Below, one piece after another: positions 35,294 through 37,321 of a stretch of 64,000 nt of DNA. The notes beneath the pieces were generated by a model. That model had not been told where the DNA came from. It ran no database searches and worked only from the letters and a program-made list of their open reading frames with translations. Positions within the stretch are counted from its first letter, which is position 1; each line of letters begins with the position of its first letter. Source of the DNA: Bacteroidota bacterium (GTDB taxonomy: Bacteria; Bacteroidota; Bacteroidia; Chitinophagales; Saprospiraceae); NCBI GenBank assembly GCA_039820405.1, contig JBCBQC010000031.1:511-64510 (forward strand), written 5' to 3'. The position numbers and the translations under genes were made by a program.

Positions 35294-36838
35294 TTACCAC
35301 AGTTTCCAGAATGGCCTGTCCCGATCCTTTTTCGGGGGCCTGTCCCGATCTTTTTTCTGATCCTGATCTCGATTCGCTTGGGAGGTGTCGGTAGCTTTTT
35401 TGGGCCATTTAAAATCCAGTTTTGGTCCCTGGGATGGCTTGTTCTTGGGCGGGGTCAGGCTTTTCAATGTATCGATAAACCGCTGCCCCTGTTCGGGCTT
35501 GACCATGCGGACAAAATTGGCGTAGCCCCATACCGCCGCCAGTACATTGGGGCTGCTGCCCCATTTTTTACCCTCCCAACCATCGCGTTTGATCTGGTGC
35601 AGTAGGGCGCGAAACTTGCGCAGCGTCCGGCGGTCCACACCGAGTTGATCGTTGACGACCAGGCCGGTCACCTCCTGGCGACCGCCCCGCCGCATGAGGC
35701 GAAACTTATCGGGGTGGAGCTTAAAGCCCTCGTCCTCGCTAATCCGCTCGATGCGCCATTTGAGCTTGGCCCAGTCGCGGGCGGCCTCGCCCGAGGCCGA
35801 AAAGCTGAGGTCATCGGCGTAACGGGTGTAGGCGTAGCCCAGTTTTTGAGCCGCCCCACTCAGTCGCCGGTCCAAACGGTAACAGAGGATGTTGGTGATG
35901 ACCGGACTGCTGGGGGCACCCTGGGGCAATTTGCGGTCCCCCCGCGCCACGAAGTAGTGCTGCCCATCCAGCTCGACCTTTTGTACTTCGGGTTCGGTAC
36001 AAATGACGCTGAGGATGGTAGCGATGTGATCGGAGTAGCCCAGGTTTTTGAACAGGCCTTTGACCCGTGGGTAGTTGATGGTGGGGAAAAAATCTTTAAA
36101 ATCGAAATTCAGGACCAGTTCCTGACCCACGTGATCCCGGGCATTGCTCAGGATGGAGCGCTCGGGTGCAAAGCCGTGGGCTTTTTCGTGGATGGGAACC
36201 CGTTGGAGAATGTGCTCCATGATCCAGTACTGGGCGGCTTTGAGGCGGGGCATCGGAGCGGAAATCAACCGCTGGCCACCCGATTTCTTGGGCAGGTAAA
36301 AACGCTGGTAGTGGTTGACCTTGCTGACCCGGCGGTGATAGGCGAGAAAGCGCAGTTCCCCCACGCTGATCTGCATGGCTTGGGCCAGGGCTTCGGCATC
36401 TCTGAAATCGGGCAGTTGGTACCGTTGCAAGCGCTCGGGCAGGCTGGCCTTATTGGACAACCCTTTGGAGACTTCCTCACCCAGGTACAAGATTTCGCGC
36501 TGCTTGCGTCGTTCCCACAGCTGGGTCCGCAGTTGGCGGTCGCGTTCGCGCTTTTCCCGGTTGAGCCGCTGCTGCTCCCGCGATTCGGCCATGCGCTTTT
36601 TGCGGTATTCGGCCAGCAGCTTTTCGGGGTCCTCCAGCTTGCGTTGGCGGGCGCTGAGTTCCCGCAACTCCTTTTGCAATTCGGTTTTGCGTTCGATCAG
36701 ATAAGCGGGTAGGCTGGGCTGATCGGCATTGCGCTGCCAAAAGCCCAAGCGCTGCATCTCCAGGAGAATAAACTCCTCCCGCGAACTGCTGCGGATTAAA
36801 TCGTACAATTCCTGACGGGTTCTCGGTTGTTCACTCAC
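35294..36838 (-). CDS. Retron-type reverse transcriptase with an N-terminal coiled-coil extension and a Lys/Asp/Arg-rich C-terminal tail
   Basis: The RT motifs are YLPKKSGGQRLISAP (motifs 1-2), YTRYADDLSFSA (YxDD) and the retron hallmarks NAxxH (SNARDHV) and VTG (RQEVTGLVVND). The start appears to be GTG. The retron RT core is preceded by 150 aa of ERK-rich predicted coiled coil. Confidence 0.7.
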   Translation of the reverse strand: MSEQPRTRQELYDLIRSSSREEFILLEMQRLGFWQRNADQPSLPAYLIERKTELQKELRELSARQRKLEDPEKLLAEYRKKRMAESREQQRLNREKRERDRQLRTQLWERRKQREILYLGEEVSKGLSNKASLPERLQRYQLPDFRDAEALAQAMQISVGELRFLAYHRRVSKVNHYQRFYLPKKSGGQRLISAPMPRLKAAQYWIMEHILQRVPIHEKAHGFAPERSILSNARDHVGQELVLNFDFKDFFPTINYPRVKGLFKNLGYSDHIATILSVICTEPEVQKVELDGQHYFVARGDRKLPQGAPSSPVITNILCYRLDRRLSGAAQKLGYAYTRYADDLSFSASGEAARDWAKLKWRIERISEDEGFKLHPDKFRLMRRGGRQEVTGLVVNDQLGVDRRTLRKFRALLHQIKRDGWEGKKWGSSPNVLAAVWGYANFVRMVKPEQGQRFIDTLKSLTPPKNKPSQGPKLDFKWPKKATDTSQANRDQDQKKDRDRPPKKDRDRPFWKLW

Positions 36839-36892
36839 GGCGGTATGGCGGTTTTAAGTAGTAAGCAAAGAAAAGGGGAAAGCACCCGACGC

Positions 36893-37079
36893 GACTTCGT
36901 ACAAGCTTCCGACCGGAGGGCTCCACTCCAAGCGGTCATGTAATAGCGAGCTTATTGACTTTGCAAAAGTCAAACTGCAATGGCTTGCTATTACATTAGA
37001 CCGCACTGTAAAGAGCCGGCCGGTGACGTATGCGTAGTTAATCGGCACGGACGACGAAACATCGCCCCGGTGGCAAGTT
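36893..37079 (-). ncRNA. Retron ncRNA-like unit A. It is proximal to the RT start.
   Basis: The 187-bp unit lies directly upstream of the RT. Its conserved flanks are shared with unit B. The central hairpin has the stem GTAATAGCGAGC / GCTTGCTATTAC around a conserved inner TTGAC...GTCAA stem-loop. The strand is inferred from the RT gene and not proven. Confidence 0.4.
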
Positions 37080-37135
37080 CTGCGGTCGGGGCTTTCCCAT
37101 GATTTCAATAAGTTACAACCGAACTCCAGTCCATC

Positions 37136-37321
37136 ACTTCGTACGAGCTATTGACCGGGGGGCTCCACTCCAAGCGGTCATACTATGGTACACTAGTTGA
37201 CTTCGCGGAAGTCAACCTGCAACAGTGTACCATAGTATAAGACCGCACTGTAAAGAGCCGACCGGTGACGTATGCGTAGTTAATCGGCACGGACGACGAA
37301 ACATCGCCCCAGTGGCAAGTT
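37136..37321 (-). ncRNA. Retron ncRNA-like unit B, a tandem copy of unit A with a fully covaried stem
   Basis: Its flanks match unit A (period 243 bp). The central hairpin stem is ATACTATGGTACACT / AGTGTACCATAGTAT, a completely different sequence forming the same structure. The inner TTGAC-loop-GTCAA is conserved. Confidence 0.4.

Follow-up and report, generated by a model that had tools for sequence, protein, structure and literature searches.

Can a single retron reverse transcriptase (RT) serve more than one template encoded at its own locus? The question is raised by a stretch of 64,000 nucleotides (nt) from a Bacteroidota metagenome-assembled genome (GenBank assembly GCA_039820405.1, contig JBCBQC010000031.1, positions 511 to 64,510), referred to here as the window. 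On its minus strand, an RT gene is directly preceded by two similar units, in the position where a retron carries the msr-msd gene for its non-coding RNA (ncRNA). An earlier examination of this DNA from its letters alone, the sequence-only reading, offered two explanations: a retron producing two distinct multicopy single-stranded DNAs (msDNAs), or a new RT-guided system in which the stem sequence is the variable specificity element. The locus is a type XIII retron, a member of the family of Mx162, Mx65 and Ne144. Mx162 was the first retron to be described. Of the two explanations, the former appears to be best supported by the comparisons. We put at roughly 80% the probability that the locus is a type XIII operon with two tandem msr-msd genes, from which one RT would produce two msDNAs differing in a stem cassette.

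The operon and its two template units

The gene order on the minus strand is WGR/HEAT, SWIM, two msr-msd units and RT. The type XIII profiles of all three proteins are covered nearly end to end, with PADLOC scores of 783 bits for SWIM_XIII and 1040 bits for WGR_XIII. On the RT, RT_XIII scores 626 bits versus 325 bits for the second-best profile. The proposal of a new RT-guided system is not supported: all three proteins match type XIII retron profiles over nearly their full length. The RT translation contains SNARDHV (NAxxH, region X), YTRYADD (the catalytic box) and QEVTGLVVN (VTG, region Y), the motifs by which the sequence-only reading had recognized a retron RT, and it carries an N-terminal extension of ~140 amino acids (aa). 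Placement of the RT among known types, proposed as a check, assigned it to retron type XIII. Its best matches in PADLOC, NCBIfam and PDB are all retron RTs, and comparison with solved structures gave 2.5e-39 for Ec86 versus 5.6e-9 for a group II intron RT. An identical RT protein is recorded from a Bacteroidota metagenome-assembled genome. The SWIM protein likely starts near 39017, which gives a length of 545 aa, as in the gene call of an identical contig (L004; the L handles denote the related RT loci compared here). The order WGR-SWIM-array-RT is also found in L003, L091 and L099. At the C-terminus of the RT (35294-35360, minus strand), a repeated basic tail (KKDRDRPPKKDRDRP) precedes a WKLW motif, in which W and K are invariant across the 25 closest homologues.

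Type XIII, as classified by Mestre et al. 2020 (PMC7736814), is a clade comprising Mx162, Mx65, Sa163 and Ne144 (Retron-Mxa1, Mxa2, Sau1 and Nex2, respectively), with SWIM and WGR/HEAT-ARM proteins, an ncRNA structure of its own, and RTs of clade 10 with an N-terminal extension. Such an extension is typical of myxobacterial retron RTs (PMC6868368). The locus in the window resembles these retrons in its RT clade and N-terminal extension, in the SWIM and WGR/HEAT partner genes, and in an ncRNA that is flanked by the SWIM and RT genes and has a1/a2 sequences, an msr hairpin, a long msd hairpin and an xxGC context of the presumed priming G. It differs from them in three respects. The classification, like the descriptions of known members, has msr-msd as one gene, whereas two complete units are present here and two to seven in relatives; each unit here has a different mid-stem cassette; and the host is represented by a Bacteroidota metagenome-assembled genome rather than by a myxobacterium.

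The two units upstream of the RT are direct repeats (unit A, 36894-37082, downstream; unit B, 37136-37324, upstream) with 83% ungapped identity. The sequence-only reading described them as tandem units of 243 bp; the two repeats stand, and their start-to-start spacing is 242 nt. The cores of 187-189 nt are ~91% identical outside the arms of the mid-stem and 49% identical within the arms. The inverted repeat of unit B, ATACTATGGTACACT/AGTGTACCATAGTAT (37180-94 / 37224-38), is complementary at 15 of 15 positions, and that of unit A, ATGTAATAGCGAGC/GCTTGCTATTACAT (36938-51 / 36983-96), at 13 of 14. The idea of a swapped stem with exactly preserved pairing is therefore correct for unit B and slightly overstated for unit A, where the mismatch is A.C in the RT-sense RNA and would read G.T in the complementary DNA (cDNA). 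The inner stem-loop reported as kept is indeed an apical hairpin common to both units, but its loop and one stem position differ. The conserved core was also rightly recognized, but it is not the full extent of a unit, as each core is flanked by its own a1 and a2 sequences.

The a1/a2 helices are unit-specific: their sequence differs between units A and B while the pairing covaries. Three G.U pairs of the unit B helix are possible on the minus (RT) strand only. A small hairpin of unit B, CCGUCAAAAGUGACGG, has no counterpart in unit A. The predicted fold of the whole 503-nt array consists of two separately closed units, and on the RT strand units A and B fold far better than shuffled sequences (z = -4.75 and -5.97, respectively). 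The stem sequences of the two units have no further match in the 64-kb window, where 0-0.06 matches are expected by chance, and the window thus holds no candidate target for the cassettes. The features of the operon and of both units are collected in Table 1.

Table 1. Features of the retron operon, in window coordinates
Feature	Position	Strand	Evidence or remark
RT, retron type XIII, 514 aa	35294..36838	-	PADLOC RT_XIII E = 1e-188, residues 1-496; Pfam RVT_1
a2 of unit A, GCGUCGGGUGCUUUCCC	36876..36892	-	pairs with a1 of unit A
Unit A core (downstream msr-msd)	36894..37082	-	repeat comparison, folds, covariation
Unit A msd hairpin	variable arms 36996-36983 and 36951-36938; apical hairpin 36973-36955	-	
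Unit A msr hairpin	37067-37049	-	
Unit A presumed priming G	37074	-	
a1 of unit A, GGGAAAGCCCCGACCGC	37082..37098	-	pairs with 36892-36876; orthologous to a1 of L002 unit 2
a2 of unit B, GGACUGGAGUUCGGUUGU	37115..37132	-	orthologous to a2 of L002 upstream unit
Unit B core (upstream msr-msd)	37136..37324	-	repeat comparison, folds, covariation
Unit B msd hairpin	variable arms 37238-37224 and 37194-37180; apical hairpin 37215-37197	-	
Unit B msr hairpin	37309-37291	-	
Unit B presumed priming G in CUUGC	37316	-	
Small hairpin between a1 and core of unit B, CCGUCAAAAGUGACGG	37330..37345	-	sequence, whole-array fold
a1 of unit B, ACAACCGGGCUCCGGCCC	37350..37367	-	pairs with 37132-37115, 17/18 positions
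SWIM zinc-finger protein, maximal open reading frame 586 aa	37380..39140	-	PADLOC SWIM_XIII E = 2e-236; Pfam SWIM
WGR domain + HEAT/ARM-repeat protein, 1124 aa, first operon gene	39029..42403	-	PADLOC WGR_XIII E = 0, residues 1-1112; Pfam WGR, HEAT_2

Related loci support the view that the two ncRNA-like units noticed upstream of the RT are RT-strand ncRNA genes in the msr-msd position. Of 74 related loci with a type XIII-like RT and 750 nt or more of upstream sequence, 68 have a match to a profile of the unit, on the RT strand and directly upstream of the RT; the units end a median of 84 nt before the RT. No copy was found elsewhere or on the opposite strand across ~90 related loci, and the window holds two copies only; the proposed check for a dispersed repeat thus found units that are linked to the RT. 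A consensus structure built from 56 units has five helices. In this alignment 90.8% of cells are paired versus 33-43% when the partners are slid, the covariation score is 0.639 versus 0.09-0.155 with slid partners, and double-sided changes occur in 34 of 39 pairs.

From 5' to 3', a unit comprises a unit-specific a1, a nearly invariant CUUGC, one hairpin, a linker, two conserved outer helices around a long hairpin, a conserved ACGAAG and a unit-specific a2. Within the long hairpin, the base and the apical hairpin are conserved and the middle varies. G.U pairs make up ~15% of cells in the 5' hairpin versus ~1% in the remaining helices. This contrast is expected if the 5' hairpin is the RNA-only msr and the rest is the msd, which pairs both as RNA and as cDNA. 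In all units, CUUGC comes after the CUU/AAG closing pairs, which places its G at the inner end of the helix. The reported contexts of the priming G are CAGC for Mx162 and GAGC for Mx65 (PMC6868368), and the CUUGC of the units fits the xxGC context of these two retrons. We infer that the priming Gs lie at 37316 and 37074 and that the msDNAs would be ~120-135 nt long.

Searches for other identities of the units were negative. Rfam gave no match at the gathering score, only chance-level miRNA hits (E >= 0.18). No reading frame is conserved in the units, none being open in more than 26 of 77. A promoter and terminator scan was uninformative, as its counts were at the level of shuffled sequences and its sigma-70 consensus is unsuited to Bacteroidota. 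The ncRNA profile gave no full match at L035, L038, L045, L046, L055 and L065, six loci that have type XIII-like RTs and plenty of upstream sequence. On the RT tree, several of these group together, and their ncRNA may be divergent.

Arrays and cassettes in related retrons

The tandem arrangement is not confined to the window. Among the 68 positive loci, 57 have one unit, ten have two and one has three; the locus sample was seeded from this RT, which biases the array frequencies towards its relatives. In the RT's own clade, every relative with enough upstream sequence carries two or three units: two in L002, L003, L009, L023, L089, L091, L093, L094, L095 and L096, and three in L010. RT identities within this array-bearing clade go down to 57-77%. 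Arrays are also present on other branches of the RT tree, with two units each in L025, L026 and L031, and one unit plus a partial copy in L043. The largest is that of L099, which has seven units between WGR-SWIM and an RT 56% identical to that of the window; L100, which was assembled independently and carries the RT of L099, has six. Every unit of L099 and L100 has its own a1/a2. A scan of a genome collection with the RT found one locus only, a single-unit one in Chryseolinea lacunae (49% identity).

The closest relative, L002 (RT 77% identical), carries two units whose a1/a2 sequences are orthologous to those in the window, and its cassettes are different again. The same two-unit arrangement as in the window is found in L004, an independent assembly with an identical RT. 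Its unit B differs only in the apical loop (window 37197-37215), where the three loop nucleotides are inverted (CGC versus GCG). Either template switching flipped the hairpin, or the assembler switched strands. The a1/a2 sequences are unit-specific in nearly all arrays; L031 has nearly identical a1/a2 in both units. The seven-unit array (L099 5231-8000, also in L100 and L101) has different cassettes in all but two of its units. The ~1.1 kb after it contain a split unit remnant, with the 5' part at 7449-7483 and the 3' part at 7857-7934, immediately ahead of the RT.

Family-wide, no part of the ncRNA is less conserved than the mid-stem. In 13 pairs of units from the same locus, the variable arms are 52.5% identical versus 90.1% elsewhere in the unit, and in unit pairs of L099 the values are 42% and 89%. 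The constant cores behave in a different manner. In L093 and L094, the cores of paralogs are 97-98% alike versus 92-95% for orthologs, which implies homogenization within the genome. The downstream cassette of these two loci is 97% identical between orthologs versus 63-66% to the neighbouring cassette. In L003 and L009 the downstream cassette is identical (100%) though the cores are 93% identical, and the upstream cassettes of L003 and L023 are 40% identical in the arms though the cores are 97% identical. L023 and L095 have cores that are 99% identical in both units and upstream cassettes that are 91% identical, but their downstream cassettes differ. One of these corresponds to the upstream cassette of L003 (94%) and the other to the downstream cassette of L003 (100%).

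The conservation between orthologs together with this swap implies that the mid-stem behaves as an exchangeable cassette and not as a freely drifting spacer. These comparisons show that cassettes can move between units, and they indicate that arrays of units with different cassettes are a maintained trait rather than a recent accident. Across L003, L009, L023, L089 and L095, three cassette types occur in the pairings (S1,S2), (S1',S2), (N,S1) and (N,S2). In this group the upstream cassettes vary, and the downstream type, S2, hardly changes. The pairings suggest either an ancestral three-unit array with differential loss or gene conversion restricted to the cassette. An enrichment of the cassettes in palindromes resembling restriction sites is not established: 24 six-base palindromes were counted versus 16.9 expected (P = 0.04), and control segments deviate too.

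Weighing the explanations

In the explanation that we favour, the operon transcript, or a processed part of it, would fold so that each unit is closed by its own a1/a2 helix. The single RT would recognize the msr hairpin and the conserved single-stranded motifs common to both units, prime from the 2'-OH of the CUUGC G at the inner end of the a1/a2 helix, and then copy the msd template. The products would be two msDNAs of roughly 120-135 nt that have the basal helices and the apical hairpin in common and differ in a double-stranded mid-stem cassette of 12-15 bp. Both msDNAs presumably act with the same SWIM and WGR/HEAT partners.

Several points weigh against this explanation. Two further loci with an identical RT depart from the two-cassette arrangement. 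L005 (1050-1605) has cassette A in both units, with the a1/a2 of unit B kept, and L006 (2697-3010) has a single chimeric unit in which the a1 and 5' core of unit B are joined to the cassette and a2 of unit A. These forms may be products of real gene conversion and deletion, or they may be collapsed repeats or other assembler artefacts; in each case something is unstable, be it the array or its assembly. Every sequence used here is from a metagenome assembly. The priming G, the ends of the msDNAs and co-transcription are deduced by comparison with known retrons, and no functional study of type XIII retrons was found in the literature searched.

The variant L005 is also an argument for a simpler account, in which the second unit is redundant and only adds msDNA dosage or is a neutral duplication. 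The mid-stem would then be constrained in its pairing only, with changes in one arm rapidly copied across to the other by template switching at inverted repeats. The low family-wide conservation of the mid-stem is consistent with this account, as are the two units of L099 with identical cassettes. Against it, positions outside the stem that vary freely within the family are identical between paralogs, while the arms are near saturation (the 52.5% versus 90.1% given above). Some cassettes are conserved between orthologs at least as well as the constant core (100% for L003_u2/L009_u2, 97% for L093_u2/L094_u2), and L023 and L095 differ in cassette despite 99% identical cores. Arrays have also been retained across a clade in which RT identity has fallen to 57-77%. 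We therefore regard redundancy as unlikely, although it is the most serious of the competing accounts.

A demand for orthogonal folding is much less probable still. It would have the cassettes and a1/a2 differ only to stop tandem units on one transcript from cross-pairing, and the unit-specific a1/a2 of nearly all arrays are what independent closure needs. Yet the L005 array is predicted to fold as two separate units despite its identical cassettes, the units have identical basal helices and apical hairpins with no predicted problem, and L031 has nearly identical a1/a2 in both units. Nor does this demand explain why cassettes are conserved between orthologs or exchanged. It is scarcely credible that the units are not retron ncRNA at all and represent a dispersed repeat such as a miniature inverted-repeat transposable element (MITE) or a repetitive extragenic palindromic (REP) element, a repeated coding sequence, a diversity-generating retroelement (DGR) or an assembly artefact. 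Open reading frames of 82-84 aa do run through the units on the RT strand, the assemblies are metagenomic and no Rfam family matches. However, the coding frames are not conserved among the 77 units, and independent assemblies as well as distant relatives show the arrangement again. The MITE or REP candidate was rejected because both copies in the 64 kb lie at the RT, and in the ~90 loci every copy is linked to the RT, on its strand. The DGR candidate was rejected because the units differ by paired changes on the two stem arms and not by one-sided, adenine-specific ones, both copies are non-coding, and the RT is of retron type.

Beyond the preferred explanation of two msDNAs from one RT, a further step can be considered, which we hold as a tentative idea and doubt more than we believe. 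The mid-stem of 7-15 bp could be an exchangeable specificity cassette, and arrays of two to seven units could give one RT and one effector set a repertoire of msDNA "alleles". Such alleles might be sensors or decoys for different invader factors, or address tags for the SWIM and WGR proteins. The cassettes would be shuffled between units and would have very different turnover rates. In some retrons, such as Ec86 (Eco1), the msDNA acts as a sensor of infection, and its hairpin is the part on which phage factors act. The likeness to such retrons would be that the sequence of the msDNA hairpin could set what is sensed. For type XIII, we know of no sensing role, trigger, toxin activity or defence phenotype.

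Two reported systems come close to the natural arrays. Ne160 (Retron-Nex1) of Nannocystis exedens resembles them in having duplicated msr/msd repeats. In the passage of PMC6868368 that summarizes Lampson and Rice 1997, these are described as several duplicated repeats with no RT within a kilobase and are read as possible retrotransposition. The array in the window differs in having complete units with their own a1/a2, located between effector genes and the RT, and in recurring across many taxa. Beyond this remark on Ne160, no precedent for natural tandem msr-msd genes was found in the literature searched, which included the classification paper and later surveys. The other system is engineered: in multitron arrays, tandem msr-msd units on one transcript are used by one RT, and a different reverse-transcribed DNA is made from each unit (PMC10370050). 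Multitrons are synthetic constructs derived from Ec86, with editing donors placed in the msd loop, whereas the array described here is natural and its variable part is a double-stranded segment of the stem. No natural counterpart of multitrons is mentioned in PMC10370050.

Neighbouring genes and significance of the arrays

A convergent gene cluster lies next to the retron at 28530-35209. It encodes a WYL-WCX-PhyH fusion protein, a DUF2828/DUF7788 vWA protein, a Band-7 protein and RtcB, with a non-coding gap of ~830 nt (32066-32896, plus strand) between the vWA and Band-7 genes. The gap contains a Y RNA-like match (YrlA, RF02553) at 32532-32596, which covers the tRNA-like module and is below threshold, at 35.3 bits versus a gathering score of 69 (E = 8e-6). 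Two similar elements beginning with CCGAAAGATTAC are present in the same gap, near 32098 and 32246. The cluster looks like an RtcB RNA-repair operon with Y-like RNAs. A link between this cluster and the retron was considered and rejected, as relatives of the retron have unrelated downstream genes. Elsewhere in the window, a tRNA-Ile gene with the anticodon TAT is found at 13220-13295 (plus strand). This anticodon is uncommon in bacteria.

Judging by the natural arrays, selection acts on the mid-stem of the msDNA, since the rest is kept constant while the cassettes are kept distinct and are sometimes exchanged. They give a handle on the role of the Mx162 family. One retron RT that naturally serves several templates on one transcript would amount to the multitron design. 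Stable multiplex retron arrays could be designed after the natural examples, which reach seven units and give each unit its own a1/a2.

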